Shown here piece after piece: positions 580 to 60,049 of a stretch of DNA of 64,000 bases (position 1 is its first letter; each line of letters begins with the position of its first letter). The stretch spans positions 4,935 to 68,934 of the forward strand of contig DASTBO010000138.1 of the NCBI GenBank assembly GCA_035712025.1, written 5' to 3'. A program made the translations under genes and the position numbers. The stretch comes from Solirubrobacterales bacterium. Lineage in GTDB: Bacteria; Actinomycetota; Thermoleophilia; Solirubrobacterales; 70-9. The notes under the pieces are model-generated. The model saw only the letters and a program-made list of their open reading frames with translations, had not been told where the DNA came from and made no database searches.

Positions 580-1904
580 GTCGAGGCCCCCAGCGTCTCC
601 GGCGCGCCGCGGACGACGGCGTGCGGATCGAGGACCAGCTCCGGGTCGGCCATCACCCGCTCGAACTCGTCCCTGAACTTGGCGACCATCGCCCCGACCG
701 GCATCGCCATCGAGTCGCCGAGCACGCAGAGGCAGTGGCCGATGATGTTCTGCTGGACCGAGCTGACGATGTCGAGGTCCATCGGCGTCGCCTCGCCGCG
801 CACCATCCGCTCCAGCATCTTCACCGTCCAGTTGGTGCCCTCGCGGCAGGGGACGCACTTGCCGCAGGACTCGTGGTGGTAGAAGCGCGCCGTGCGCAGC
901 GCCAGGTGCGGGATCGAGACCCGGTCGTCGCAGACGATGATCGAGCCCGAGCCGAGCATCGAGCCCGCCTCGGCCATCGCCTCGAAGCTGTAGGGGAGGT
1001 CGAGGCCCTCCTCGGCGGTGAGGACCGGGGAGGAGGAGCCGCCGGGGAAGAAGGCCTTGATCTCGTGCCCGTCCTCGGGGCCGCCGGCGAGGTCGCAGAT
1101 CAGCTCCCGGGTCGGGATCCCCAGCTCGACCTCGTAGTTGCCCGGGCGCTTGACGCCGCCGGAGATCGAGACCACCTTGGTCCCCGGCGACTGCTCGGTG
1201 CCGAAGCCCTTGAACCACTCGGCGCCGTGGCGGACGATGTGGGGGACGTTGGAGAGCGTCTCGACGTTGTTGATCAGCGTCGGCCCGCCGTAGAGGCCCT
1301 GCACCGCGGGGAAGGGCGGCTTCAGGCGCGGGTTGCCGCGCTTGCCCTCCAGCGCGTCGAGCAGGGCGGTCTCCTCGCCGCAGATGTAGGCGCCGGCGCC
1401 GCGGTGGACGACCAGCTCGAGGTCGCGGTGGCAGCCGAGGATGTTCGTGCCGAGGTAGCCCGCCTCGTAGGCCTCGGCGACGGCGGCGTCGAGGATGTCG
1501 GCCTGCTCGTCGTACTCGCCGCGGATGAAGATGAAGGCGTGGCCGGCGTCGGCGGCCAGCGCCGCGATCGCGATCCCCTCGATCAGCTGGTGCGGGTTGC
1601 GCTGCATCAGCTCGCGGTCCTTGAAGGCGCCGGGCTCGGACTCGTCGGCGTTGCAGCAGAGGTACTTGGCCATGTCGCCGCGCGGCAGGAAGGAGGCCTT
1701 TTTGCCCATCGAGAAGCCGGCGCCGCCGCGGCCGCGCAGGCCCGAGTCTTCGAGCTCCTTGAGGACCTCGTCCTGCTCCATCTCCTTGTAGGCGCGCTCC
1801 AGCGTCTCGTAGCCGCCGGCCAGCCGCCGGTAGCCGTCGAGCGTGCGCAGCGCCGGGTCCTCGGCGTGCTCGAGCAGGACCCGCTTCTCGCGCGGGTCAG
1901 CCAT
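576..1904 (-). CDS. nuoF: NADH-quinone oxidoreductase subunit F
   Basis: 442-aa ORF with GLRGRGGAGF NADH/FMN motif and ESCGKCVPCREG 4Fe-4S motif; sits in nuoA-G order. Confidence 0.95.
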   Translation of the reverse strand: MADPREKRVLLEHAEDPALRTLDGYRRLAGGYETLERAYKEMEQDEVLKELEDSGLRGRGGAGFSMGKKASFLPRGDMAKYLCCNADESEPGAFKDRELMQRNPHQLIEGIAIAALAADAGHAFIFIRGEYDEQADILDAAVAEAYEAGYLGTNILGCHRDLELVVHRGAGAYICGEETALLDALEGKRGNPRLKPPFPAVQGLYGGPTLINNVETLSNVPHIVRHGAEWFKGFGTEQSPGTKVVSISGGVKRPGNYEVELGIPTRELICDLAGGPEDGHEIKAFFPGGSSSPVLTAEEGLDLPYSFEAMAEAGSMLGSGSIIVCDDRVSIPHLALRTARFYHHESCGKCVPCREGTNWTVKMLERMVRGEATPMDLDIVSSVQQNIIGHCLCVLGDSMAMPVGAMVAKFRDEFERVMADPELVLDPHAVVRGAPETLGAST

Positions 1905-2598
1905 CGAAGCCGTCCTCCCCTCCGCTGACGGGACGATTACCGCTTACATCAAGCGCTTTTCGTCCCGTCGGCGGTTCGGTGTCGCCGGCCAAGGGGCGCT
2001 TGGCGAGGGATTTCGCCGGGAGGACCTCCTCGCCGGCGCGCAGCTGGCCGATCGCGATCCCCGCCTCGGCCGCCTCCAGCGGCCCGTAGTAGCGCTGGTC
2101 GATCGAGGCCATCGGGGCGATGTCGCAGGCTCCGAGGCACTCGAACCCGGTGACGAAGAAGTTGGCGTCGTCGCCCTCGGCTGCCGCTTCGAAGGCCTCG
2201 AGCAGGCGGTCGCCGCCGCGCATCCAGCAGCTGATGTTGGTGCAGACCTCGATCCGGTGGGTCCCGACCGGCGAGGTGTGCAGCAGGTCGTAGAAGCTCG
2301 CGACGGACTCAAGGTAGGCGGGGGTGACCCGCATCACCGCGGCGGCCTGGCGGATCCCCTCCGGGGTGCACCAGCCGTAGAGCTCCTGCACCGCCCAGAG
2401 CGCCGGGATCGAGGCCGAGCGGCGGTCCGGGTAGCGGCCCATCAGCGTCTCGATCCGCTCCCGCAGCTGCGGCGGGCAGTCGACCTCGTGCAGCTCGGGG
2501 ATCTGCTCCTCGGAGCGGTCGGGGACCCGGCCCTCGCGGACCGCGGGGTCGACTGGGAGGTTCGGGTTGTGGATGCCGGGACCGTCGACGGGGCTCAT
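1897..2598 (-). CDS. nuoE: NADH-quinone oxidoreductase subunit E (with C-terminal extension)
   Basis: Internal ATG at 2598 overlaps the nuoD stop (ATGA). Thioredoxin-like 2Fe-2S motifs CTNISCWMRG..CLGACDIAP. The N-terminal part of the 453-aa track ORF is an Arg/Pro-rich artefact. Confidence 0.9.
   Translation of the reverse strand: MSPVDGPGIHNPNLPVDPAVREGRVPDRSEEQIPELHEVDCPPQLRERIETLMGRYPDRRSASIPALWAVQELYGWCTPEGIRQAAAVMRVTPAYLESVASFYDLLHTSPVGTHRIEVCTNISCWMRGGDRLLEAFEAAAEGDDANFFVTGFECLGACDIAPMASIDQRYYGPLEAAEAGIAIGQLRAGEEVLPAKSLAKRPLAGDTEPPTGRKALDVSGNRPVSGGEDGFDG
1927..1969. repeat. 43-nt palindromic repeat, copy 1 (inside nuoE 3' coding end)
   Basis: GACGGGACGATTACCGCTTACATCAAGCGCTTTTCGTCCCGTC; 34/43 identical to the reverse complement of 33587-33629; shares the 3' flank GGCGG with that copy. 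Confidence 0.8.
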
Positions 2599-9414: not shown

Positions 9415-12400
9415 ATGCGGGCGGCCAGTCATTCGACAAGGGAGATGTCAGCTGTGGCTCGCAATGGAATCGTCCGGCGAGGTATTCGACTCGCGATCCT
9501 GTTCACCCTGATTGCGGTCGTGACCGCCGCAGGTGTATCCGCGGCGCTCGGCGCGAGCGGCGAAAACGCCCCTCGTTCATCGCGCGATGTCCTCGAGCAG
9601 CAGCGGGTTGCCAAGCACAAGCGTGCCGCCAAGCACCAGCGGAAGCGGAAGCATCGAGCGAAGTCCCGCCAGCAGAGTCGAAAGGACGGAGCGAGGGCCC
9701 AAGGCCCGGTCGAGCTGGCCCCCGGGGTGACCGAATCCCCCAACGGCTGGATCCACTATGAGCCGCTTCCGGCGGGACCGGACGTCCAGCTCGAAAAGAC
9801 CGTTCGCTTCGACGGCACCCCGGTCGATGGCGGCGCCGGCTGCAAGATCGAGAAGCCCTCCCAGATGCCGCCCCAGGGCCGGGAACTCTTCCGCGAAGAA
9901 ATCGCCTACAACCCCGATACCTGCGAGGCGGTCTACCTCGAAAGGCTGATCGGCGAGGCCCCCAAGTCCGGCGGTGCGCAGACGCGGGTGGTGCCTGGCA
10001 GCTCATCGGAGGTGGACTACAAGAGCGGCCACAACATGCAGCTGTGGGTCGACCCGATCGGGATCACGATCACCGGCCTCAGCGTCGACTACACCTGGCC
10101 TCTGGACGACGCGCCAGGGGAGCCCGTAGTCGATCCCTACTCCTACAAGTTCGCCCTCGACGGCTGGAGGGCGGGCCTGATCGAAAAGGATCTCATCCCG
10201 GTGTCAAAAGAGCGCCCCTTCGGCGAGGACGAAAGGATGTGGGGATCGGCGAACCCGAACTCGCCCGCAGGCGGCAACCGGGCGACCGCCTATCGCCGCT
10301 TCGAAAACATCGACTTCTACAAAGCGGTGAAAGCGGCAAAAATGGGGTTCGTCTGCCACAGCGTGCCGATGGCGTGGACCGTCTTCGAGCAGGAAGTCGC
10401 GGTCACCGGCTACTACAACGGCCGCATGGGCACCTGGCAGCACAGCGTCAAGTCCGGCCCCTGCACGGACCTCGTCCACAGCCGGGAAAAGGTCGCCTGG
10501 GGCACCAAGAGGGGCAAGTTCCCGAAGGAATTCAAGGACGAGTTCCTCAACAAGATCTGGAACGGGACCCCCTTCAGCAAAATCATCGCCTCTCTCGCCT
10601 CGATGGATCGCATGGCCGTCAACAAAGGGGGGACCTCGCCGGTGCCCTCGGACCTGCTGCCGATCGACATCAACCAGACCTCGGTCACGGTCGACGGATC
10701 GGTCAATCCGCGCGGGAAAAGCACCAACTGGTGGGCCCAGTGCGGCCCGACCGAAGCCTACGGAATGTGGGCGAGCGGGCAGGTGAACATCGGCAGCGGG
10801 GTCATCCCGGTGCCCGTCAGCGTGACGGTGCCCAACCTCCAGCCGAACACCACCTATCACTGCCGCATGGTGACGCTGAACATGAACGGGGAAGCCTCCG
10901 TCGGACCCGACAGTGAATTCACCACGAGCGAAGCGGCGGCACCGAGCGTCGCCACCGCCTACACCACTGACATCACCGATACGAGCGCCAAGATCCTTGG
11001 CTGGCTGAATGGCAATGCTGCCGCCACCAACTTCTATTTCCAGTGGGGCAAGACGACGGCGTACGGCAATAACTCTCCTGCGCCCCCCGGCTGGAGTGCC
11101 AACACTATAGACGAGCCCTTCCTGGCTGGGTATAGCCTTACCGACCTCGAACCTGGAACCACCTACCACTACCGGCTCGTCGCCTCGAATGTCTCCGGCA
11201 CCAACTACGGGGAAGACCAGACCTTCACCACCCGGTCGCTGATACCGAGTGTCACCACCGGACCGGCGGTGGAAATCACCACGAGCGACGCCAAACTGAC
11301 CGGATCGATCAACCCGAACGGACTGGCCACCAGCTACTGGTTCGAATACGGGAAGACCACCGACTATCAGTACAGAGAGCCTTGGCACGCACCTCCCGGT
11401 AATGACATCGGATCCGGGACCAGCATTGTGCAGGTGGGCGCCAAAGTCTGGTCGATCGAAATCGGAGCCACTTATCACTACCGGCTCGTCGCCAGGAACG
11501 CCCATGGGACCACCTACGGAGAAGATAAGACGTTCACCGCGCTGACCTACCCGCCGGGAGCGACGACCTTGCCGGCGATCCAGGTCGGCGAAGCGAAAGC
11601 AAGGCTCAGCGGAGCGGTCTCTCCCAACGGTGCCACCACCTACTACTTCCAATTCGGGAAAACGACCGCCTACGGAACCAACTATCCGCAGGTGCCGGAG
11701 TCGGTCGGCTCGGACCCGAGGCAAGTTCCAGTGTCCTATGAAGTCTTCAACCTCGAACCGGGGGTTACCTATCACTACCGTACTGTCGCCTCGAATTCCT
11801 CCGGCAGCAGCTACGGAAAAGACGAAACGTTCACCACTCTGACGCCGAGTACCCCGCGGATCGAACCGACCACTGCGGGTGAAGTGACCCAGTCGAAGAT
11901 CACCATGGCCTCGAAGGTCGATGTCAAAGGCCTGGCTGGCACCTATTACTTCGAATACGGGAACCTCGAAAAATACGGCTCCAAAACCGAAGAAAAAGCC
12001 GTGCCCGCCGGGTCCGGCTACCAGCAGGTGAGCGCCGCGCTGGAAGGGCTCCCGAACGGCTCGACTATCCATTACCGGGTCGTGGTCACCAACAGCGACC
12101 GGACGGTTCGAGGGACCGATCAGGTGGCGACGACCGGGTGGACCAACGAGCCGAGCGCCACCCCGAAAGGATCCAAATCCGACAAGCTGACGGACGTATC
12201 CTGCCCCAGCGCTGGCAACTGCGTCGCCGTCGGTACCTTCGAATCCTTTTCGTCCACTGATCCGAAGGTATCCGCGGAGCGTTGGGACGGCACGAGCTGG
12301 ACGGCGATCGAACCGCCTCTTCCGGCGGGCACCCTCCTCTCGGAGCTGAGAGGCGTTTCCTGCGTTGCCGTCAACAACTGCATCGCGGTGGGCTTCGCCA

Positions 12401-14793
12401 CCAGCGGTGTCAGTGCCGCCCGCCCTCTGATCATGAAATGGAACGGCTCCACCTGGACCGAAGTCTCCGCCGGGAGCCAGCTTCCGGCCGGTTCTCAGCA
12501 CGTTCTGAACGACATCTCCTGTCCGGCGGCCAATAGCTGCGAGGCGGTCGGCTACAGCATTCCGAGCAGCGGTGCGCTGAAAACGCTGGCCATGCATTGG
12601 GATGGCAGCGTCTGGACCGTGCGCGCCAGCGCCAACCCCAAATGGCCGGGATCCGTGGCCACCAAAGAAGACATGGTCCTGGCTGGCGTCGACTGCGCCA
12701 GCGCGACCTTCTGCAAGGCGGTCGGCAGGATAAGCACGAGTTTCGGAGGCAGGCCGCTGATCGAGCGGCTGAACGGCTCCGAATGGCTCAGCGAGACCAC
12801 CCAACCGCCGAGCAGCAACGTCGATACGGCCCTGAACGACGTCTCGTGTCCCACCACGGCGATGTGCGTTGCGGTCGGCAACGCCAGTACCGCGGCCTCG
12901 GCGCCGTTCCCCTCACCGGAGGCCGCCTTCATCCAGCTCTGGAACGGGAGCCAATGGAGCTTCGACTGGGCTCCCAGCGCCAACGAAACCGGGGCGGCGA
13001 TGGGCCTCGGTGCCGTCTCCTGCTCATCCCCGACGTCCTGCCGGGCCGTTGGCGCCGGAGGGCGGGGGGTGCGCTGGACCGGCAAAGACTGGAGACTGCA
13101 GGCGGCGAAGCTCCCCCTCCTCAGCGCGTCCCCCACTTCGGGGCAATCGGGCGGCATCTCCTGCCCGACCGCGGCGGAGTGCCACTCCGTGGGCTCGTAC
13201 CAGAACACGGCTGGCATAGCGCAGCGTCTGACGCAAGGCTGGTCCGGAAGCAGCACCGTGCCGGGAACGCTCGGCGACGCCGCGACGGTGAACGGCGAAA
13301 CGGGCGCCACCGTCCGTGCGTTCGTCGATCCGGCCGGGGTAGACACCAAGTACTACTTCGAATACGGGCCGACTGAATCCTATGGGACGAAAACGGCCGA
13401 AACCAGCGCCGGTTCTGGAGGCCTCAGCTTCAACTCGGGCGCCCGGATCGCGGTGGCCGTGAACCTGGGCGGCCTGCAGCCGGGGGTGAGGTACCACTAC
13501 CGCGTGGTCGCGACCAACGGCACCTCCACTGCCTACGGCCCCGACACGACCTTCGAAACGCTGAACAAGGTCAACGGGATGCCGTTGACGGAGGAATTCG
13601 ACGGTACGACCAGCCCCATTTCGGACTTCGCGACCAAGTGGGCGCCGCTGCAGTGGGCTGGAGCAGCCCACAAGGGAAACAACACCGCCGGCGGCTACGC
13701 TCCCGTCGACACTGCTCTGAACGGCGCCTACTACATGCCGATGGTCACGGACGGGGGCCTGGGCATCGCCGCCCAGGCAACGATCATGGCGGCTCCGGGC
13801 GTGGGCGGCCGCGTCTCGCTCTGGCTCGACATGGGCAGCCCGGCCACGGCCAAGTCCGGTTACCAGCTGGTCTTCCAGGAAACGAGCCTGGACACCTATA
13901 CCGTCACCCTGAAGAAGTGGCTCAACGGCGTGGAAACGTCGCTGGCCTCTAAAACGGGCTACTACTTTCCCCCCGCCAGCTCGATGTCCCTCGTCGATAT
14001 CGGGGGGGCGGTCTCCGCGTGGGGCAATCTCGACGGCAACTTCGCCAAAATCGTAGGTGCGACCGACAGCGGCTTCTCCGCCGGCAACGCCGGGGTCGAG
14101 GTGTCCGGTTCGAGCGCGGCCCGCGTGACCAGATTCAAGGTGGGGACGCTGTGTCCGGAAGGGCCGAACTTCGATTTCGCTGCGATAGCGATCCCGAAAT
14201 TGGACCCGCTCGACCGCAACGAATCGCCGCTCTCGCTGTCCGGTGCCTGGGGGGCGTTCGGCTGGGCCACGACCGCCGTCAAACCCGGGAAAGTCGTATC
14301 CGGATCCGGCTGGACCTCTGGCGAGACGACGAGCGCGATGGCCGGCGCCTATTGGCAGAAAGCCACGATCGGAGACACCGGCACCGGCGATGCGGTCATC
14401 GTCACCAACAACAAAGCCATCGGCAGCTCGCCCAACTCCATTGGCCTGTGGTTGAACGCGGCCAACCCCGGTTCGGCGACGAGGAACGGCTACCAGTTGC
14501 GGGTGACGGAGGTGAGCACCGGGGTTGACCTCAAGGTCTGGAAGTGGGTGAACAACGTGCCCACTCAGCTGGGGAGCAAACTCCTCACCACGGGCGCCTG
14601 GGTGGTCGGGGCCAAGTTTGCCCTGATCGAGAGAGACGGCACGGTTTCGGCGTGGTGGAGCCCGAACGGAGGCACGTTCTCACGGGCGACCATCGCGTCC
14701 GACACGACCTACAGCTACGGGTATGCCGGAGTCGAAGCCTCCGGCACCACCGCCCTGAAGGACTTCAAGGCGGGCATTCTGCCCCAGTTCTGA
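9415..14793 (+). CDS. giant secreted multidomain protein: signal/TM anchor, unknown N-domain, Fn3-like modules, 7 Cys-pair blades, tandem lectin/jelly-roll-like domains
   Basis: 1792-aa uninterrupted ORF with internally repeated protein motifs. Start is ambiguous: ATG 9415, ATG 9445, or GTG 9454, which lies 9 nt after AAGGGAG. Hydrophobic segment IRLAILFTLIAVVTAAGVSAALG. Confidence 0.85.
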   Translation: MRAASHSTREMSAVARNGIVRRGIRLAILFTLIAVVTAAGVSAALGASGENAPRSSRDVLEQQRVAKHKRAAKHQRKRKHRAKSRQQSRKDGARAQGPVELAPGVTESPNGWIHYEPLPAGPDVQLEKTVRFDGTPVDGGAGCKIEKPSQMPPQGRELFREEIAYNPDTCEAVYLERLIGEAPKSGGAQTRVVPGSSSEVDYKSGHNMQLWVDPIGITITGLSVDYTWPLDDAPGEPVVDPYSYKFALDGWRAGLIEKDLIPVSKERPFGEDERMWGSANPNSPAGGNRATAYRRFENIDFYKAVKAAKMGFVCHSVPMAWTVFEQEVAVTGYYNGRMGTWQHSVKSGPCTDLVHSREKVAWGTKRGKFPKEFKDEFLNKIWNGTPFSKIIASLASMDRMAVNKGGTSPVPSDLLPIDINQTSVTVDGSVNPRGKSTNWWAQCGPTEAYGMWASGQVNIGSGVIPVPVSVTVPNLQPNTTYHCRMVTLNMNGEASVGPDSEFTTSEAAAPSVATAYTTDITDTSAKILGWLNGNAAATNFYFQWGKTTAYGNNSPAPPGWSANTIDEPFLAGYSLTDLEPGTTYHYRLVASNVSGTNYGEDQTFTTRSLIPSVTTGPAVEITTSDAKLTGSINPNGLATSYWFEYGKTTDYQYREPWHAPPGNDIGSGTSIVQVGAKVWSIEIGATYHYRLVARNAHGTTYGEDKTFTALTYPPGATTLPAIQVGEAKARLSGAVSPNGATTYYFQFGKTTAYGTNYPQVPESVGSDPRQVPVSYEVFNLEPGVTYHYRTVASNSSGSSYGKDETFTTLTPSTPRIEPTTAGEVTQSKITMASKVDVKGLAGTYYFEYGNLEKYGSKTEEKAVPAGSGYQQVSAALEGLPNGSTIHYRVVVTNSDRTVRGTDQVATTGWTNEPSATPKGSKSDKLTDVSCPSAGNCVAVGTFESFSSTDPKVSAERWDGTSWTAIEPPLPAGTLLSELRGVSCVAVNNCIAVGFATSGVSAARPLIMKWNGSTWTEVSAGSQLPAGSQHVLNDISCPAANSCEAVGYSIPSSGALKTLAMHWDGSVWTVRASANPKWPGSVATKEDMVLAGVDCASATFCKAVGRISTSFGGRPLIERLNGSEWLSETTQPPSSNVDTALNDVSCPTTAMCVAVGNASTAASAPFPSPEAAFIQLWNGSQWSFDWAPSANETGAAMGLGAVSCSSPTSCRAVGAGGRGVRWTGKDWRLQAAKLPLLSASPTSGQSGGISCPTAAECHSVGSYQNTAGIAQRLTQGWSGSSTVPGTLGDAATVNGETGATVRAFVDPAGVDTKYYFEYGPTESYGTKTAETSAGSGGLSFNSGARIAVAVNLGGLQPGVRYHYRVVATNGTSTAYGPDTTFETLNKVNGMPLTEEFDGTTSPISDFATKWAPLQWAGAAHKGNNTAGGYAPVDTALNGAYYMPMVTDGGLGIAAQATIMAAPGVGGRVSLWLDMGSPATAKSGYQLVFQETSLDTYTVTLKKWLNGVETSLASKTGYYFPPASSMSLVDIGGAVSAWGNLDGNFAKIVGATDSGFSAGNAGVEVSGSSAARVTRFKVGTLCPEGPNFDFAAIAIPKLDPLDRNESPLSLSGAWGAFGWATTAVKPGKVVSGSGWTSGETTSAMAGAYWQKATIGDTGTGDAVIVTNNKAIGSSPNSIGLWLNAANPGSATRNGYQLRVTEVSTGVDLKVWKWVNNVPTQLGSKLLTTGAWVVGAKFALIERDGTVSAWWSPNGGTFSRATIASDTTYSYGYAGVEASGTTALKDFKAGILPQF

Positions 14794-32813: not shown

Positions 32814-33479
32814 TTAGGCGAGCGCGGCCGAGGCCCGCTCTTTGGCGGACTCGACGATCGCCAGCACGGCCTGCTCCTGGCCTTCGCGCAGCAGCACGAT
32901 CGGGTCGGGGTCGCCGTTGACGATCCCCTCGAAGAACTCCTTGCGGTCCTGGTAGGTCGGCAGCGTCCCCTTCGCCCAGCCGCGGGCGTCGTTGAGGATC
33001 ACCGCCAGGCGCGCGTACTCCTCGCCGAAGAGCGCGGAGATCTCGCGCTTCATCCGCTTCGCCAGCGCCGGCGAGGCGCCGGCGGTCGAGATCGCGATCG
33101 CCAGCGGCCCGGTGCGGACGATCGCCGGCAGGATGAAGTTGCAGAGCGGCGGCACGTCGACGATGTTGACCAGCATCGCCCGCTGCTCGGCGTCGTCGAA
33201 GATGCCGATGTTGACCTCCGAGTCGTCGGTGCAGGCGATCACCATGAAGACGCCCTCGAGGTCCTCGGGCCCGGCGTAGGCCCGCTTCTCCCAGGCGATC
33301 GAGCCCTCGCCCGCCAGCCGCTCCAGCTCGGGATGGGCGGCCGGGGCGATCAGGGTGACGTCGCCCCCGCAGGCCAGGAGGCCCTCGACCTTCTCGAGGC
33401 CGATGTCGCCGGCGCCGACGACCAGGCACCTGCGCCCGGTCAGTTTCAGGCAGGCGATGTAGAAGGGGGTCTCGAGCAT
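32814..33479 (-). CDS. precorrin-2 dehydrogenase / sirohydrochlorin ferrochelatase (SirC/CysG N-domain-like)
   Basis: ATG at 33479 (an alternative ATG at 33560 adds a Cys-rich 27 aa); [19 protein letters not shown] Rossmann motif; ..[21 protein letters not shown].. Confidence 0.8.
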
Positions 33480-33586
33480 GTCCCGCACGCAGGACTGGTC
33501 GCAGATCCCCTTGCGGTACTGGCAGACGCACTCCTTGCCGGCATAGGCCTGGGCGGGCATGGGGGGAAGGCTAGCGATCCCAGGTC

Positions 33587-33629
33587 GACGGGCCGAAAAC
33601 CGCTCTGCCTGAGCGGAAATCGTCCCGTC
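33587..33629. repeat. 43-nt palindromic repeat, copy 2 (intergenic, 5 nt downstream of epimerase stop)
   Basis: GACGGGCCGAAAACCGCTCTGCCTGAGCGGAAATCGTCCCGTC; folds as 6 bp + 3 bp + AAA/AAA internal loop + 6 bp + 5-nt loop. Confidence 0.85.
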
Positions 33630-33634
33630 GGCGG

Positions 33635-34567
33635 TCAGATCGAGTCCAGCGTGACCCGCAGGCCCTCGTCGAGGTCCATCTCGGCGCGCCAGCCGAGCTC
33701 GCGCTCGGCGCGGGTGGTGTCGATCGAGATCGCCTGGACCTCGCCGGTGCGGGGCGGCGCGAGCTGGGCCTCGAAGTCGTCGCGGCCGCTGATCCCGCGC
33801 AGGGCCTCGACCAGCTCCAGCACGTTGGTCTCCTTGCCGGTGCCGATGTTGATCGCCCCGGTGGCCGCGGAGTCGCCGGCGGCGAGCGCGGCGGAGACCA
33901 CGTCGCCGACATATATGTAGTCGCGGGTCTGGGTGCCGTCGCCGTAGACCGTCGGCTGACCGCCCTCCTTGATCAGGCCGCAGAAGATCGCGATCACCCC
34001 CGCCTCGCCGAGCGGGTCCTGGCGCGGGCCGTAGACGTTGCCCAGCCGCAGCGAGACCCCCGAGAGCCCGTAGAGGCGCTCGTAGAGGGAGAGGTAGCCC
34101 TCGGCGGCGAACTTGCTCTGGCCGTAGGCGGAGAGCGGCGCGATCGGGGCGTCCTCGGGCAGCGGCAGCTGCTGGCCCTCGCCCTCGCCGTAGATCGCCC
34201 CACCGGTGGAGATCGAGACCACCCGCCCGCACTCCGAGGCGCGCGCCGCCTCGAGCACGTTGGCGGTGCCGCCGACGTTGACGCCGGCGTCGAAGAAGGG
34301 GTCGGCGAGGGACTTGCGGACGTCGATCTGGGCGGCGAGGTGGAAGATCGCCTGCGGCCGCTTCTCGCCGGCCAGGCGGCTCAGCGCCTCGCCGTCGCGG
34401 ATGTCCAGCTCGACCAGCTCGGCGCCGGCGGCGAGGCCCGGCTCGAGGTTGGCCCGGCGGCCGGTGGTGAGGTTGTCGACCACCGTCACCTCGTCGCCGC
34501 GCGCGAGCAGGGCGTCGACCAAGTTCGAGCCGATGAACCCCGCGCCGCCAGTGACGAGACACCTCAT
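33635..34567 (-). CDS. NAD-dependent epimerase/dehydratase (GalE-like)
   Basis: 310 aa; [16 protein letters not shown] catalytic motif. Confidence 0.9.
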
Positions 34568-36964: not shown

Positions 36965-37561
36965 TTGTTCATCTCGCTCGAGGGCGTCGACGGCTCGGGC
37001 AAGAGCACCCAGGCGCGCCTGCTGGTCGAGGCGCTGGGGACCGACACGGTCGCGATCCGCGAGCCGGGGGGGACCGAGGCGGCGGAGCGGATCCGCGAGC
37101 TGCTCGCCGACCCGGGAGTCGCGCTGGAGCCGCTGGCCGAGCTGATGCTCTTCCTCGCCGCCCGGGCCGAGGTCACCGCGCGGGTGATCCGGCCGGCGCT
37201 GGAGGCGGGGCGGCACGTCGTCGCCGACCGCTTCTCGGACTCCAGCATCGCCTACCAGGGCGCCGCCCGCGGCCTCGGCGTCGGCGAGGTGATCGGCCTC
37301 TGCGAGACGGCGACCGACGGCCTCTGGCCCGACCTCACCCTGCTGCTGCGGATCGAGCCCGAGGCCGGCCTCGGGCGCGCGGCGGGCGACGACCGCTTCG
37401 AGCAGGAGGGCCTGACCCTCCAGCAGGAGGTCGCGACCGCCTACGAGGAGATCGCGATCATCGCCTCCGACCGGGTCGTCGTCGTCGACGCGACCGGGAG
37501 CGTCGAGGAGGTTCACGCCCGGGTCATGGAGGCGGTGAATGAGCACCTCGCCGCTGCTTGA
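36965..37561 (+). CDS. tmk: dTMP kinase
   Basis: 198 aa, TTG start; [16 protein letters not shown]-loop. Confidence 0.9.
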
Positions 37562-38672
37562 GGCGACCGAGCACCAGGGCCGGGCGCGGGTGGCGCTGAG
37601 CGCGGCGCTCGCCGAGCCCTCCCACGCCTACCTCTTCCGCGGCCCGCGCGGGTCGGGGAAGCGGGCGGCGGCGCGCTCCTTCGCGGCCGAGATCCTCGCC
37701 GCCGCGGCCGCCGACCCCGAGGACGCGCGGCGGCGGGCGCTGCTCGACCCCTCGCCGCATCCCGACCTCGTCTGGCTGGCGCCGACCGGCGCCCAGCACA
37801 TGGTCGAGGAGGTGCGGGAGCGGGTGATCCGCGCCGCCGCCTACCGGCCCTTCGAAGGCGGCCGGCGGGTGTTCGTCGTCGAGGCGGCCGAGGCGATGCG
37901 CGACGAGAGCCAGAACGCGCTGCTGAAGACGCTGGAGGAGCCACCCGGGTTCGTCCACCTGATCCTGCTCAGCTCCGACCAGGAGGGCCTGCTGGAGACC
38001 GTCGCCTCCCGCTGCCAGCCGATCGATTTCGCCCCCCTTCCCGCGGAGGTGCTCGAACACGAGCTTGCCGACGGGCCGGAAACCGCTCTGTCTGAGCGCA
38101 AATCGGCCCGTCGCGACGGGGAGGTCGCCGCCGCGGCTCGCCTCGCCGCCGGCGACCTCGAGCGGGCGCGGCTGCTGCTGAGCGAGCGGGGGCGCGAGCT
38201 CCGCGCCGAGGCCGAGCGCTGCGTTACCGCCGCCCTCGCCGGGGAGTGCGCGGGCGCTCCCTGGAAGGCGCTCCTCGACGACGCACAGACCGCCGGCGCC
38301 GACGTCGAGGCGGCGGCCCGCGAAGCGCTCGAGGAGGAAGCGAAGGCGGGGATCAAACGCAGCGCCAAGGAGATCGCCGACGGCGCCAAACGCGCCGGTC
38401 GCCGCCGCCGCACCGAGATCCTCACCCTCGCCTACGAGCTCTGCGCGGCCTGGCTGCGCGATCTCGCCGCCGTCGCCGCCGGCGCCGAGGAGGTCGCCTT
38501 CAACCGCGACCGGCTCGAGCAGCTGCGCGCCCAGGCCGAGGGGCTGGATGCGGCCAAGGCCCGCCGCGGCGCCGAGCTCGTGCAGGAGACCCGCCGCGGC
38601 CTCGACCTCAACGTCAGCGAGGAGCTGGCGTTAGAGGCGCTTTTCTTCCGGCTCGAGACGCTGCTGGCCTGA
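37539..38672 (+). CDS. holB: DNA polymerase III delta' subunit
   Basis: 377 aa; HAYLFRGPRGSGKR, ..QNALLKTLEEPP.., SRCQ motif; carries the repeat insertion at codons 178-192. Confidence 0.85.
   Translation: MSTSPLLEATEHQGRARVALSAALAEPSHAYLFRGPRGSGKRAAARSFAAEILAAAAADPEDARRRALLDPSPHPDLVWLAPTGAQHMVEEVRERVIRAAAYRPFEGGRRVFVVEAAEAMRDESQNALLKTLEEPPGFVHLILLSSDQEGLLETVASRCQPIDFAPLPAEVLEHELADGPETALSERKSARRDGEVAAAARLAAGDLERARLLLSERGRELRAEAERCVTAALAGECAGAPWKALLDDAQTAGADVEAAAREALEEEAKAGIKRSAKEIADGAKRAGRRRRTEILTLAYELCAAWLRDLAAVAAGAEEVAFNRDRLEQLRAQAEGLDAAKARRGAELVQETRRGLDLNVSEELALEALFFRLETLLA
38070..38112. repeat. 43-nt palindromic repeat, copy 3 (in-frame inside holB)
   Basis: GACGGGCCGGAAACCGCTCTGTCTGAGCGCAAATCGGCCCGTC; 39/43 identical to 33587-33629 in the same orientation; GACGGG repeated at 38115-38120. 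Confidence 0.85.
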
Positions 38673-46403: not shown

Positions 46404-47171
46404 ATGGCGAAAGATCGGGATGCCACCGCCGATCCCGCCGCCTCCGAGGCGAACCTGACCGTCGAGCAGCTCGCCTACGAGACCGGGATGTCGGTGCGCA
46501 ACATCCGCAACCACCAGTCCCGGGGCCTGCTGCCGCCGCCCGAGGTGCGCTCCCGCGTCGGCTACTACGGCCCCGAACACGTCGCCCGCCTGCGCCTGAT
46601 CCAGGAGATGCAGTCGGAGGGCTTCAAGCTGAGCGCGATCTCCCGCCTGATCGGCGAGCACGGCGCCGACGCCGACCGCTTCGTCGGCCTGCGCCAGGCC
46701 GTCACCGCCCCCTTCGCGACCGAGGCGCCCGAGGTCTACTCGCGCGAGGAACTGGTCGAGAAGTTCGGCGCCGACGACGACAAGCTGCTGGAAAAAGCCC
46801 AGAAGCTCGGCCTCCTGGTCGATCTCGGCGAGGAACGCTTCGAAGCCCCGAGCCCGGCGCTCCTGCGCGCTGCCGAGGCGGTTCTCGGCATGGGCATCGA
46901 GCTCCCCGCCGCCCTTGCCGCGATCGAGAAGCTGGAGCGCAACTCCCAGGCCTCGGCCCGCACCTTCGTCAACCTCTTCGTCGACGAACTCTGGAAGCCC
47001 TTCGACGAAGCCGGCCGCCCCGAGGAGGGCTGGGACGAGCTGATCGAGGCGATCGGTCGCCTCCGCCCGCTCGCCTTCGACGCCCTCAACGCCACCTTCC
47101 GCCTCACCCTGACGACCGAAATCGAAAAAGCCTTCGGCGAAGTCCTCGAACGGCGGCAGAAGAAGAAGTAG
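46404..47171 (+). CDS. MerR-family transcriptional regulator (paralogue of 59243-60049)
   Basis: 255 aa; HTH LTVEQLAYETGMSVRNIRNHQSRGLLPPP..GYYGPEHVARL. Confidence 0.85.
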   Translation: MAKDRDATADPAASEANLTVEQLAYETGMSVRNIRNHQSRGLLPPPEVRSRVGYYGPEHVARLRLIQEMQSEGFKLSAISRLIGEHGADADRFVGLRQAVTAPFATEAPEVYSREELVEKFGADDDKLLEKAQKLGLLVDLGEERFEAPSPALLRAAEAVLGMGIELPAALAAIEKLERNSQASARTFVNLFVDELWKPFDEAGRPEEGWDELIEAIGRLRPLAFDALNATFRLTLTTEIEKAFGEVLERRQKKK

Positions 47172-48319
47172 TGGGTGGGGCAGGCGACAAGGACCGGCCC
47201 CGGCTCGCCAGCGGCACGATTGCCGTGCACGGCGGGCTGGGCGAGCGCGGTCAGGGCGCCCCGTTTCTGGCTGGCCCGACGTTCGCCGCACCGTTCCACG
47301 TGCAGGGCGACGACCCCCTGGCGGCAGCGGACTACGTCTACGGCCGGTATGGAAATCCGACCTGGACGAACCTCGAGGACGCGCTCAGCGAGCTCGAGGA
47401 CGACGACTCCCGCACGCTGATCTTTCCCTCCGGCTCCGCGGCGATCTCGGCGGTGCTGATGGCGACCGTGGAGCAGGGGAAGGCGATCGTCGTGCCCAAC
47501 GACGGCTATCCGGCCGCTCGCCTGACGGGTGGCTGGCTGGCGGACATGGGCGTCGAGGTACGGAAGGTGCCAACCGACACCGAAGCCGTGATCGCGGCGC
47601 TTCCGGGGGCCGCCCTCGTCTTCGTGGAGACTCCGTCGAACCCGGGACTCGACGTGGCCGACATCGGTGCGGTCTCCGCGGCGGCCGCCGCGGAGGGTGC
47701 GCGCCTCGTCGTCGACAACACCGTCGCCACGCCGCTCGGTCAACGTCCCTTGGAACACGGCGCTCATGGCTCGTTGATGAGCGCGTCCAAGCATCTGACC
47801 GGCCACAACGATCTGGTGCTCGGATCGTTCACCTCTCGGGACGGGCCCTGGATGGACAGCATCGAGAAGTGGCGCCGGGAGTCGGGCTCGATCGTCGGCC
47901 CGTTCGAGGCCTGGCTGGCCCACCGATCGCTCGCGACTCTCGAGGTGCGCCTGGATCGGCAGTGCGGGAACGCGGTGTCCCTGGCGGAGATGCTCTCCGG
48001 ACGCGAGGACGTTCCCTCGGTTCGCTACCTGGGCCTTGCAAGCGACCCGGCCCACGAGCTGGCGGCGCGCCAGATGACGCGCTTCGGCAGCATCATCTGC
48101 TTCGACCTCGAGGATGCGGACCGCGCCCGGCGCTTCCTGTCGGCGTGCGAGCTGATCATCGAGGCATCCAGCTTCGGCGGTGTGCATACCTCCGCCGAAA
48201 GGAAAGCGCGGTGGGGGATCGACCTCGTCTCCAGCGGACTGATCCGACTCAGCGTCGGGATCGAGGACCCGGTGGATCTCCGTGCCGATCTCGAGCAGGC
48301 GCTGGACCGGGCAGGCTAG
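47171..48319 (+). CDS. Cys/Met-metabolism PLP-dependent enzyme (cystathionine gamma-synthase/lyase family)
   Basis: GTG at 47171 overlapping the merR-like TAG; ..YGRYGNPTW.., PLP-lysine context SASKHLTGHND. Confidence 0.85.
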   Translation: MGGAGDKDRPRLASGTIAVHGGLGERGQGAPFLAGPTFAAPFHVQGDDPLAAADYVYGRYGNPTWTNLEDALSELEDDDSRTLIFPSGSAAISAVLMATVEQGKAIVVPNDGYPAARLTGGWLADMGVEVRKVPTDTEAVIAALPGAALVFVETPSNPGLDVADIGAVSAAAAAEGARLVVDNTVATPLGQRPLEHGAHGSLMSASKHLTGHNDLVLGSFTSRDGPWMDSIEKWRRESGSIVGPFEAWLAHRSLATLEVRLDRQCGNAVSLAEMLSGREDVPSVRYLGLASDPAHELAARQMTRFGSIICFDLEDADRARRFLSACELIIEASSFGGVHTSAERKARWGIDLVSSGLIRLSVGIEDPVDLRADLEQALDRAG

Positions 48320-58535: not shown

Positions 58536-59246
58536 ATGCTCGATGACCGCGTCATCGCGATCGCCGGGGTGGGGGGCGGCCTGGGGCCGCTCGTCGCCGA
58601 GCGGCTCGCGGCTGCGGGCGCCACCGTCGCCGGCGCCGGTCGCGATCGGGACGCGCTCGACGCTCTCGCCGCCGACCTCGATCTTCCCGCCGAGCGCTGG
58701 GACGGCCGCGCCGTCGACCTGCTCGACGAGGACGCCGCCCGCGGCTGGCGCGAGGCGCTGGTCGAGCGGTTCGGGCGGGTGGACGGGCTGGTCCACCTGG
58801 TCGGGGGCTGGCGCGGCGGGCAGCCGCTGCAGGAGGCGCCGCTCGGCGACTGGGCGCTGCTGCATAACCTCCTCGTCCGCACCGTCCAGCACACCACCCG
58901 CGCCTTCCACGACCAGCTCGCCGCCAGCCCGCACGGCCGCTTCGTCCTCGTCTCCTCCAAGCAGGCGCAGGCGCCGACCGCCACCAACGCCGCCTACGCA
59001 GCCGCCAAGGCCGCCGCCGAGGCCTGGACCCTCGCTCTCGCCGACGGGTTCGAAGGCAGCGCCGCGACCGCCAACATCCTCGTCGTCGACGCGATCCTCA
59101 CTCCCCAGATGCGCGCCGAGGAGCCCGACAAGGAGTTCCCGACCTTCACCCCCGCCGAGGACATCGCCGACGGCATCGCATTCCTCTGCTCGGACGCGGC
59201 GAAGAAGATGAACGGGCAGCGCTTCCCGCTTACCATGGGCAGATGA
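58536..59246 (+). CDS. short-chain dehydrogenase/reductase family protein
   Basis: 236 aa; IAGVGGGLG Rossmann motif, YAAAKAA catalytic YxxxK. Confidence 0.85.
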   Translation: MLDDRVIAIAGVGGGLGPLVAERLAAAGATVAGAGRDRDALDALAADLDLPAERWDGRAVDLLDEDAARGWREALVERFGRVDGLVHLVGGWRGGQPLQEAPLGDWALLHNLLVRTVQHTTRAFHDQLAASPHGRFVLVSSKQAQAPTATNAAYAAAKAAAEAWTLALADGFEGSAATANILVVDAILTPQMRAEEPDKEFPTFTPAEDIADGIAFLCSDAAKKMNGQRFPLTMGR

Positions 59247-60049
59247 GCAGCCGCAAAGGGCGGAACGCCAAGCCCGACGGCAAGATGACGATCGGGGAGC
59301 TGGCGCGGCGGACGGGAATGACGATCCGCAACATCCGCGCCCACCAGACGCGCGGCTTGCTGCCGCCGCCCGAGGTCCATGGCCGCACCGGCTACTACAA
59401 CGAGGACCACGTCGCCCGGATCGAGCTGACCCGGGAAATGCAGGCCGAGGGCCTCAACCTCGAGGCGATCCGCCGCGTGCTGGAGAGCAGCGAGGGCTCC
59501 TCCCGCGAGATGGTCGACTTCGCCCGCGCGGTGCGCGCCCCCTTCGAGGACGAGACGCCGGAAATCTTCGACGCCGAGGAGCTCGCCGCCGCCTGGGGCG
59601 TCGAGCGGTTCGACCCCAAGCTCCTCGCCCGCACCGAACAGCTCGGCATCCTGCGTCAGCTTCCCGACGGCAAGGTCGAGGTGATCAGCCCCCGCCTGCA
59701 GCGGGCCGGGACGGCGCTGGTCGAGCTCGGCGTCTCGCCCCAGGCGGCGGTCGAGACCGCCGAGCAGCTGCGCCGCTCCTCCGAGAAGGTCTCGCGCACC
59801 TTCGTCGAGCTCTTCGTCCGCGAGATCTGGGAGCCGTTCGACAAGGCCGGCCGGCCGGAGGAGGACTGGCCGAAGGTGCGCGAGGCGCTGGACCGGATGC
59901 GCCCGCTCGCCTCCGACGCGCTGCTGGCGATGTTCCAGATCACGATGGGCGAGTCGACCGAGAAAGCCGGCGAACGAACCCTCCGCGACGCGGCCAAGCC
60001 GGCCGGCAAGCGACGCCGCAAGCGCAGCTCCTCTAGCCGCCGATCGTGA
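59243..60049 (+). CDS. MerR-family transcriptional regulator (paralogue of 46404-47171)
   Basis: 268 aa; ATGA overlap with the SDR stop; MTIGELARRTGMTIRNIRAHQTRGLLPPP..GYYNEDHVARI; basic C-terminal tail. Confidence 0.85.
   Translation: MSSRKGRNAKPDGKMTIGELARRTGMTIRNIRAHQTRGLLPPPEVHGRTGYYNEDHVARIELTREMQAEGLNLEAIRRVLESSEGSSREMVDFARAVRAPFEDETPEIFDAEELAAAWGVERFDPKLLARTEQLGILRQLPDGKVEVISPRLQRAGTALVELGVSPQAAVETAEQLRRSSEKVSRTFVELFVREIWEPFDKAGRPEEDWPKVREALDRMRPLASDALLAMFQITMGESTEKAGERTLRDAAKPAGKRRRKRSSSSRRS

Follow-up and report, generated by a model that had tools for sequence, protein, structure and literature searches.

A dispersed 49-nt palindrome family of Solirubrobacterales, probably a non-autonomous mobile DNA element

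Does the hairpin that follows an epimerase gene in a Solirubrobacterales bacterium serve the transcript of that gene, or is it a DNA element that has come to lie there? The original prediction, made on a 64,000-nucleotide stretch of contig DASTBO010000138.1 (the window), described an intergenic repeat of 43 nt in a terminator-like position, with sister copies at holB and nuoE whose compensatory changes suggested selection on a hairpin, in RNA or in DNA, more than on sequence alone. We examined the three copies, their wider family and the corresponding sites in relatives, and weighed host function against mobility.

Three copies of one palindrome

The copy in question, copy A, occupies a spacer of 74 nt whose two neighbouring genes both run on the minus strand: an NAD-dependent epimerase/dehydratase gene upstream (33635..34567, minus strand; Pfam PF01370, E = 2.9e-59) and a siroheme synthase-like gene downstream (32814..33560, minus strand; NAD_binding_7 and Sirohm_synth_M). 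Its core, GACGGGCCGAAAACCGCTCTGCCTGAGCGGAAATCGTCCCGTC, occupies 33587-33629 and lies 5 nt from the epimerase stop codon, as had been described; the reverse complement is the form present in mRNA. The proposed fold was reproduced exactly, with pairs 1-6/38-43 and 8-10/34-36, an AAA/AAA internal loop, pairs 14-19/25-30 and a 5-nt loop. The extent needed amending: the palindrome is 3 bp longer on each side, and the complete 49-nt element covers 33584..33632 on the plus strand, comprising the core and GTC/GGC flank pairs. Its predicted free energy is -27.6 kcal/mol on the plus strand and -28.2 kcal/mol on the mRNA-sense strand, with a z score of about -6 to -7, and none of 200 shuffles was as stable.

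The sister copies exist where they had been reported, and on closer inspection lie inside the coding sequences, not merely near them. Their cores span 38069-38113 and 1926-1970, the latter fitting best as the reverse complement, and the chance expectation of a 43-nt match with at most three mismatches is 0.00. A covariance model run over the window with filters off scored the three copies at 49.7-60.9 bits on their better strands (59.8 bits for copy A, plus strand) against 17 bits for the next best hit, and found no decayed copies elsewhere in the window. At the gathering threshold, Rfam reported two tRNAs in the window and no match to the element, for which the best sub-threshold model was int-alpA (18.9 bits against a threshold of 35.8 bits).

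Copy B (38067..38115, plus strand; 49.7 bits) sits in phase 0 and in frame within holB, the gene for DNA polymerase III delta' (37539..38672, plus strand), which is an intact ORF with Pfam PF13177 at residues 26-167 and whose product is 81-88% identical to proteins from Solirubrobacterales MAGs. GC3 in the same frame is 0.92 and 0.93 on the two sides. The copy is predicted to encode ADGPETALSERKSARR in the linker just after the AAA+ domain. A low-confidence AlphaFold model (mean pLDDT 66.9), in which residues 179-190 are coil with pLDDT below 50, hints that these residues may form a loop.

Copy C (1924..1972, minus strand; 60.9 bits) is in phase 2 and in frame within the 3' tail of nuoE (1897..2598, minus strand; Pfam PF01257 at residues 50-180). 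The nuoE stop codon (1897-1899) overlaps the nuoF reading frame by 8 nt, with the nuoF ATG at 1902-1904, and the bases added at this junction include the Shine-Dalgarno-like GGAGGGGAGGA ahead of nuoF. The peptide predicted for copy C, PTGRKALDVSGNRPVS, comes from another frame of the element than that used in copy B, which marks the element as a DNA repeat and not a protein motif.

Family membership and base pairing

One genome per bacterial species was searched with a loose pattern that fixes 20 of the 43 core bases. At least 108 loci matched, and among the matches listed about 66 form a clear family, placing further copies of the repeat well beyond the window. These members have the same outer stem, then an A/T-rich segment, and then an inner GC stem that ends in a T/A-rich loop. 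MAGs of Solirubrobacterales, Thermoleophilia or Conexibacteraceae supply nearly all of them, the remaining listed matches (Streptomyces and others) being unrelated GC hairpins; among the matches listed, the family is dispersed and specific to Solirubrobacterales/Thermoleophilia (Actinomycetota). A single 3.8-Mb chromosome (OZ241364.1) holds at least 12 loci, and at five or more of its loci the 43-nt cores are identical; identical core pairs are also found within locus L053 and within locus L060. Viral contigs scanned with the 43-nt family pattern gave no matches, and a literature search for repeats in Solirubrobacterales or Thermoleophilia returned none.

With a covariance model, 79 distinct copies were recovered among the collected loci, the window's three included. 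The family consensus, GCC-GACGGGCCGAAAAsCGCT-CTATATC-AGCGsTTTTCGGCCCGTC-GGC, is a near-perfect 21-bp stem with a 7-nt loop. Because this stem takes in the flank triplets, which are GCC/GGC, GTT/AAC or GTC/GAC depending on the genome, the true unit is 49 nt, with about 65% G+C. The outer half-site GACGGG...CCCGTC is invariant, sequence just beyond the conserved 49 nt is often complementary as well, and the window copies represent an A.A internal-loop variant found in 20 of 68 copies. A motif, GG(A/G)GTTGG, also lies to one side of the element, at a distance of 0-5 nt, in 10-11 of 158 flanks, a rate some 55 times that of the background (L028, L006, L059, L019, L016, L025, L072, L084, L004:3888 and L094:344).

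The pair states originally assigned to the window copies were right: in copy A, the holB copy and the nuoE copy, position 7/37 is C.T, C-G and A-T, and position 19/25 is C-G, C-G and T-A. When 68 distinct copies are compared, the covariation claimed for these positions holds at 7/37 (C-G in 50, A-U in 13, unpaired in 5) and fails at 19/25, which is unpaired in 53. Five other stem pairs covary besides 7/37. For the stem as a whole, pairing-preserving selection is borne out by double changes: 89.5% of cells pair, 10 of 22 pairs have changed on both sides, the covariation score is matched by none of 500 shuffles, and sliding the partner by one to three columns lowers pairing to 25-44%. Since the pattern behind this 68-copy set fixed part of the stem, the count was redone on 16 copies located by synteny alone. 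Among these, whole apical stems differ and still pair (CGCTC/GAGCG, CGGTCC/GGACCG, CCGGT/ACCGG, CCCAC/GTGGG), nine pairs carry double changes, and again no shuffle out of 500 reached the observed score. Additional copies and compensatory changes were thus both found, and the palindromy as such is clearly preserved.

Filled and empty sites among relatives

Relatives were located by their TopA (84-98% identical), which gave 80 further loci; these were compared along with the window and loci L109-L111. At site A, the epimerase spacer, the 57 loci divide into 8 with this element, 25 that are empty, with spacers of 12-29 nt, and about 20 with one of four unrelated hairpin repeats; a few have decayed or interrupted copies. 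At site B, the holB linker, 13 of 64 loci carry the element with identical junctions and the rest are empty. Two loci (L109 and L110) are empty at both sites, with a spacer of 24 nt against 74 and a holB linker 24-30 nt shorter; L111 is filled at both. The two states can be discordant, with L119 filled only at B and L113 only at A. HolB orthologues measure 367-371 aa without the segment and 377-391 aa with it, and 207-aa NuoE orthologues (92% identical) stop at ..RGLAGD*, 26 residues earlier and without the tail. DNA alignment with the empty loci L194 and L195 places 71 additional nt at the nuoE/nuoF junction, site C. In ValS, one loop is 12 aa long in most relatives, 24-25 aa with the element and 30 aa with a different insert. 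The footprint varies from site to site: filled alleles gain 50 nt at A, a net 24 to 33 nt at B and 68 to 71 nt at C, and the ValS loop is longer by 12 to 13 aa. No consistent target-site duplication was seen at A, B or C, where flanking identity to the nearest empty alleles is only 83-94%. Among close relatives, each site is filled or empty independently of the others, and copy A is an insertion relative to the short (12-29 nt) spacers.

The spacer itself contains a block, GAAGGCTAGCGA (33566-33577), 5 nt from the siroheme-synthase-like start codon, which is kept in filled alleles and, as GAAGGYTAGYGA or a close variant, in empty alleles of 26-29 nt; the shortest spacers (12-13 nt) have its first half only. 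In mRNA sense, the conserved block beside this start codon (33561-33577 in the window, and the orthologous spacers) reads TCGCTAGCCTTC, which is pyrimidine-rich and not Shine-Dalgarno-like. All site-A insertions lie between the start-codon block and the epimerase stop.

Several other sequences have settled at these sites. An unrelated palindromic repeat of about 70-105 nt with the core GGGAGCCGGGGGTGGTCCTCGGCGGAC-AACAGCGGGGAGG-GTCCGCCGAGGACCACCCCCGGCTCCC, not present in the window, occupies the orthologous site-A spacer in L112, L115, L116, L120, L126, L129, L131 and L144, and recurs at two other loci (L057 near 4320 and L103 near 7140). Three more distinct hairpins use the same 8-nt target space at site A: F3 (L117, L121, L124, L134, L143, L155), F4 (L171, L185, L186, L189) and F5 (L154). 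In L186, the F4 hairpin is apparently nested between decayed arms of the 49-nt element. At L142:1720-2971, site A has the element's left half and then a 1.2-kb insert containing small ORFs, one of which resembles a PadR-type regulator as read from the sequence, and the right arm is missing. Longer holB inserts (106-113 nt, e.g. ADGTESPPMDDKSAHRPTAVDGSARR) in L131, L155 and HolB entries P0067, P0091, P0107 and P0111 look like the element with a partial duplication of its right arm. In ValS, the loop after ..NASRLILLN bears the 49-nt element in L094 and P0242 and a different insert of about 18 aa (CKFQQNQSLTNAPQGQVPAAVGR..) in P0241, P0244, P0245, P0249, P0252, P0257, P0267 and P0284; many ValS entries from long contigs are annotated as partial. 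In more distant relatives (TopA about 87% identical; L171:3902-3956, L172:397-451, L173:703-757, L185:1935-1989), the spacer between the divergent epimerase and topA genes contains a further copy, about 50-100 nt from topA on its upstream side; this site is empty in the window.

Copies also resemble one another more within a genome than between genomes. For four genomes with copies at both A and B, the two copies match each other at 91-100% over their apical 23 nt, whereas the window's apical 23 nt are 43-74% identical to those of orthologous copies in other genomes. The 300-nt flanks are 83-94% identical between the window and its closest relatives, and 67-91% for L130, L136, L159 and L180. 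Copies within one genome share a genome-specific apical stem, which points either to homogenisation within the genome or to re-colonisation of the same sites by each genome's own subfamily.

To place the 79 copies relative to genes we used a GC3-based gene caller, which gives sensible genes in the window. Downstream of a single gene lie 34 copies, inside ORFs 25, and between convergent genes 6; another 14 fall into a class that includes divergent spacers. Only 4 of the approximately 69 pattern-scan copies are between divergent genes. A stop codon is found within 40 nt of 40 of the 54 intergenic copies, 6 of them between convergent genes, and within 15 nt of most intergenic copies; such proximity is nearly unavoidable because the spacers are so short. 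Nearly all of the 25 ORF-internal copies have a GC3 of 0.8 or more on either side in one and the same frame, apart from L011 and four copies that have less than 60 nt of flank. Copies occur in all three phases, and the host genes include those for ValS, PheT, a TrpE/PabB-like chorismate-binding enzyme (two copies), a GlcD-like oxidase, an FGGY kinase, a Mur ligase and HolB. Read from its sequence, the consensus is open in three frames in one direction and has stops in two frames in the other, which fits the excess of 'sense' over 'antisense' copies inside genes (16 against 9). In-frame copies are predicted to be read through as an extra peptide in any of the three open frames. Copies survive only in permissive places, namely in the short gap that separates a stop codon from the following gene and, within proteins, at variable surface loops or tails.

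Explanations of the palindrome and their consequences

One explanation would be a hairpin selected by the host in RNA, whether as a terminator lacking a U-tract, an operon attenuator or a stabiliser of the 3' end against exonucleases; covariation would then reflect selection on RNA structure. The strength of the hairpin on the mRNA-sense strand (-28.2 kcal/mol), the location of copy A 2-5 nt past a stop codon, the 40 of 54 intergenic copies within 40 nt of one, the different hairpin families in the same spacer of relatives and the flanks that often lengthen the stem beyond the conserved element are all in keeping with such a role. Against this, neither strand has a T-run beside copy A, and a scan for terminator and promoter consensus sequences does not call the element. 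Its orientation relative to transcription of the upstream gene is unbiased (19 antisense, 15 sense) and mismatches in the mRNA sense show no excess of G-U (17) over A-C (21), so that, with no orientation bias, no G-U excess and no U-tract, an RNA terminator is not supported. Nor is the terminator-like reading of its position supported, since 25 of 57 relatives have no hairpin in this spacer, its length when empty (12-29 nt) is operon-like and argues against the end of a transcription unit, copy C lies at a translationally coupled nuoE/nuoF junction, and sister copies reside inside holB, nuoE, valS and pheT. Termination would be lethal in essential genes, whose coding sequences hold a third of all copies; because these copies cannot be efficient terminators, the constraint would act at the DNA level and any RNA effect would be incidental. 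Soil metagenome and metatranscriptome runs contained related sequence only as short contigs of mixed relatives, without 3'-end information. Nothing indicates that copy A is a dedicated terminator. Its hairpin (-28 kcal/mol in mRNA) may incidentally protect the upstream 3' end or damp read-through, and we see no evidence that the host selects it for either effect. On balance, we regard a host-selected RNA hairpin as improbable. In the high-GC actinobacterium Mycobacterium tuberculosis, which lacks U-tract terminators, the TRIT motif is a repeated, conserved GC-rich hairpin that is described as occurring only 3' of genes and is interpreted as a terminator. The 49-nt family resembles it as a sequence-conserved GC-rich hairpin after genes; unlike TRIT, it also occurs in coding sequence and is polymorphic for insertion. 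A further host role, as the site of a dimeric DNA-binding protein (an operator or a nucleoid-organising factor) kept for regulation, would agree with the two-fold symmetry and the invariant outer half-site GACGGG...CCCGTC. That proposal is hard to credit at all given copies inside coding regions, their insertion or absence among close relatives, an inner stem that changes freely while pairing holds, and the lack of promoter association, with 4 of about 69 copies between divergent genes and 14 of 79 in the class that includes such spacers.

We instead favour, with a probability of roughly 0.75, the reading of copy A as a member of a non-autonomous, selfish family of 49-nt palindromes, similar to REP and RPE sequences, that would propagate at the DNA level. 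It is presence and absence among relatives, together with likeness within genomes, that speak for propagation. The selection on a hairpin that the original prediction left open between RNA and DNA is then best read as a requirement of a mobile DNA element and not as host RNA function. The element would have inserted at 33584-33632 into the short spacer between the epimerase and siroheme-synthase-like genes, and the propagation machinery would depend on the palindrome. The likeliest route is recognition of a hairpin or cruciform in single-stranded DNA by an enzyme acting in trans, comparable to REP/RAYT or IS200/IS605-type HUH transposases; alternatively or additionally, gene conversion between copies may homogenise them. 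Either process, or both, would explain why the two arms change together. Some observations weigh against this reading. The searches described below yielded no mobilising enzyme, and a consistent target-site duplication was not seen; several unrelated hairpins at the same spacer, with complementary outer flanks, mean that the host could benefit from a hairpin there, and the proximity of intergenic copies to stop codons would also suit a role at RNA 3' ends.

Several known systems invite comparison. Rickettsia palindromic elements (RPEs) are about 100-150 bp long, AT-rich and confined to Rickettsia, encode one conserved peptide per family, and sit in frame in unrelated housekeeping genes, adding a peptide at permissive positions (PMC10969869). 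The present family shares with them a dispersed palindrome, a large fraction of which lies in frame within intact housekeeping ORFs, and the existence of orthologues without the segment; it differs in being 49 nt long and GC-rich, in belonging to free-living soil Actinomycetota, in using three frames and both orientations, and in having no sequence similarity. Its behaviour is nearest to that of RPEs, and its size and genome-specific homogeneity to those of REP/REPIN sequences; the element fails defining features of both.

A true REP/REPIN-RAYT system, in which a single-copy REP-associated tyrosine transposase (RAYT, of the Y1/HUH type, its gene typically flanked by the repeats) elsewhere in the genome mobilises the palindromes, would be a specific version of the favoured reading. 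A short, imperfect palindrome dispersed in tens or more copies per genome, mostly just after genes, with lineage- and genome-specific subfamilies, homogeneity within genomes and no evident target-site duplication, is what such a system would produce. We nevertheless judge it unlikely, since the copies start G(C/T)(C/T)GACGGG and have no GTAG-type 5' tetranucleotide (68 copies), form a single hairpin and not a doublet of two REP hairpins, and are not extragenic, a third being intragenic (25 of 79 in ORFs, copies B and C in the window). E. coli RayT, used as a phmmer query on the six-frame ORFs from 1.29 Mb of Solirubrobacterales carrier DNA, enriched for copies, gave no match at E <=10, and the REPIN/RAYT literature found by search makes no mention of Actinobacteria. 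Clustering 435 predicted proteins from 64 element-bearing loci revealed only ordinary paralogue families and no recurrent neighbour gene, and among the same 64 loci no recurrent transposase-like neighbour and no parent insertion sequence with the same ends was seen. Two ORFs lying between paired copies are not transposase candidates: that of L053 is acetolactate-decarboxylase-like as read from its sequence, and that of L060 is weakly REase_MTES_1575-like and occurs once in the collected DNA. In the latter arrangement (L060:6409-7412), two identical copies lie 961 nt apart, one on each side of a single ORF whose codon composition is atypical and whose weak match is to a DUF559-like endonuclease.

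A classical MITE, the deletion derivative of an insertion sequence whose DDE transposase recognises the arms as terminal inverted repeats, would account for the presence/absence polymorphism, and in-frame fusions caused by intragenic MITEs are documented (PMC10969869). Terminal inverted repeats are trivially present here, the whole sequence being one inverted repeat. With its 49 nt the element is no larger than the smallest usual MITEs or falls below them, the three sites aligned show no consistent target duplication, and neither pairing along the full arms nor covariation of the inner stem is required for recognition of terminal repeats; with no parent insertion sequence among the collected loci, we find this origin very doubtful. 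The hairpin- or terminator-like MITEs Correia, ERIC and SPRITE are likewise small, non-autonomous inverted repeats near gene ends, and some create in-frame fusions or change transcript ends (PMC10969869). They differ in measuring 100-160 bp or more and in having defined terminal repeats and target duplications, whereas this element is one continuous 21-bp stem with no evident duplication and no U-tract. It is also conceivable, though unlikely, that an undescribed hairpin-specific system distinct from RAYT mobilises or homogenises these palindromes by overwriting the apical part of resident copies, and targets hot spots shared with unrelated hairpin families. Overwriting of this kind would explain the genome-specific stems at orthologous sites, and such a system would keep supplying the essential proteins of abundant soil Actinomycetota with new loops.

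In-frame colonisation of coding sequence by small palindromic repeats is regarded mainly as a peculiarity of Rickettsia. With the present family, the same behaviour is seen in free-living, high-GC, uncultured soil bacteria, where it affects constrained genes such as holB, valS, pheT and a Mur ligase gene. In annotating these genomes, a hairpin after a gene should not automatically be called a terminator. Differences in length among conserved proteins of Solirubrobacterales MAGs often stem from the element and may mislead gene callers and alignments. Filled and empty alleles, together with homogenisation within genomes, would make the family a tractable system for studying movement without an evident transposase and the seeding of protein loops.

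Two further features of the window were noted. A 1689-aa ORF at 9727-14793 has a GC3 of 0.83, below that of its neighbours, and includes repeats of about 300 nt (11144-11848 and others) with 65-77% identity; it presumably encodes a repeat-domain surface protein. Two stretches 12.8 kb apart (46444-47107 and 59274-59943) are 71-74% identical, a similarity that indicates paralogous gene pairs at 46404-48319 and 59243-60049.
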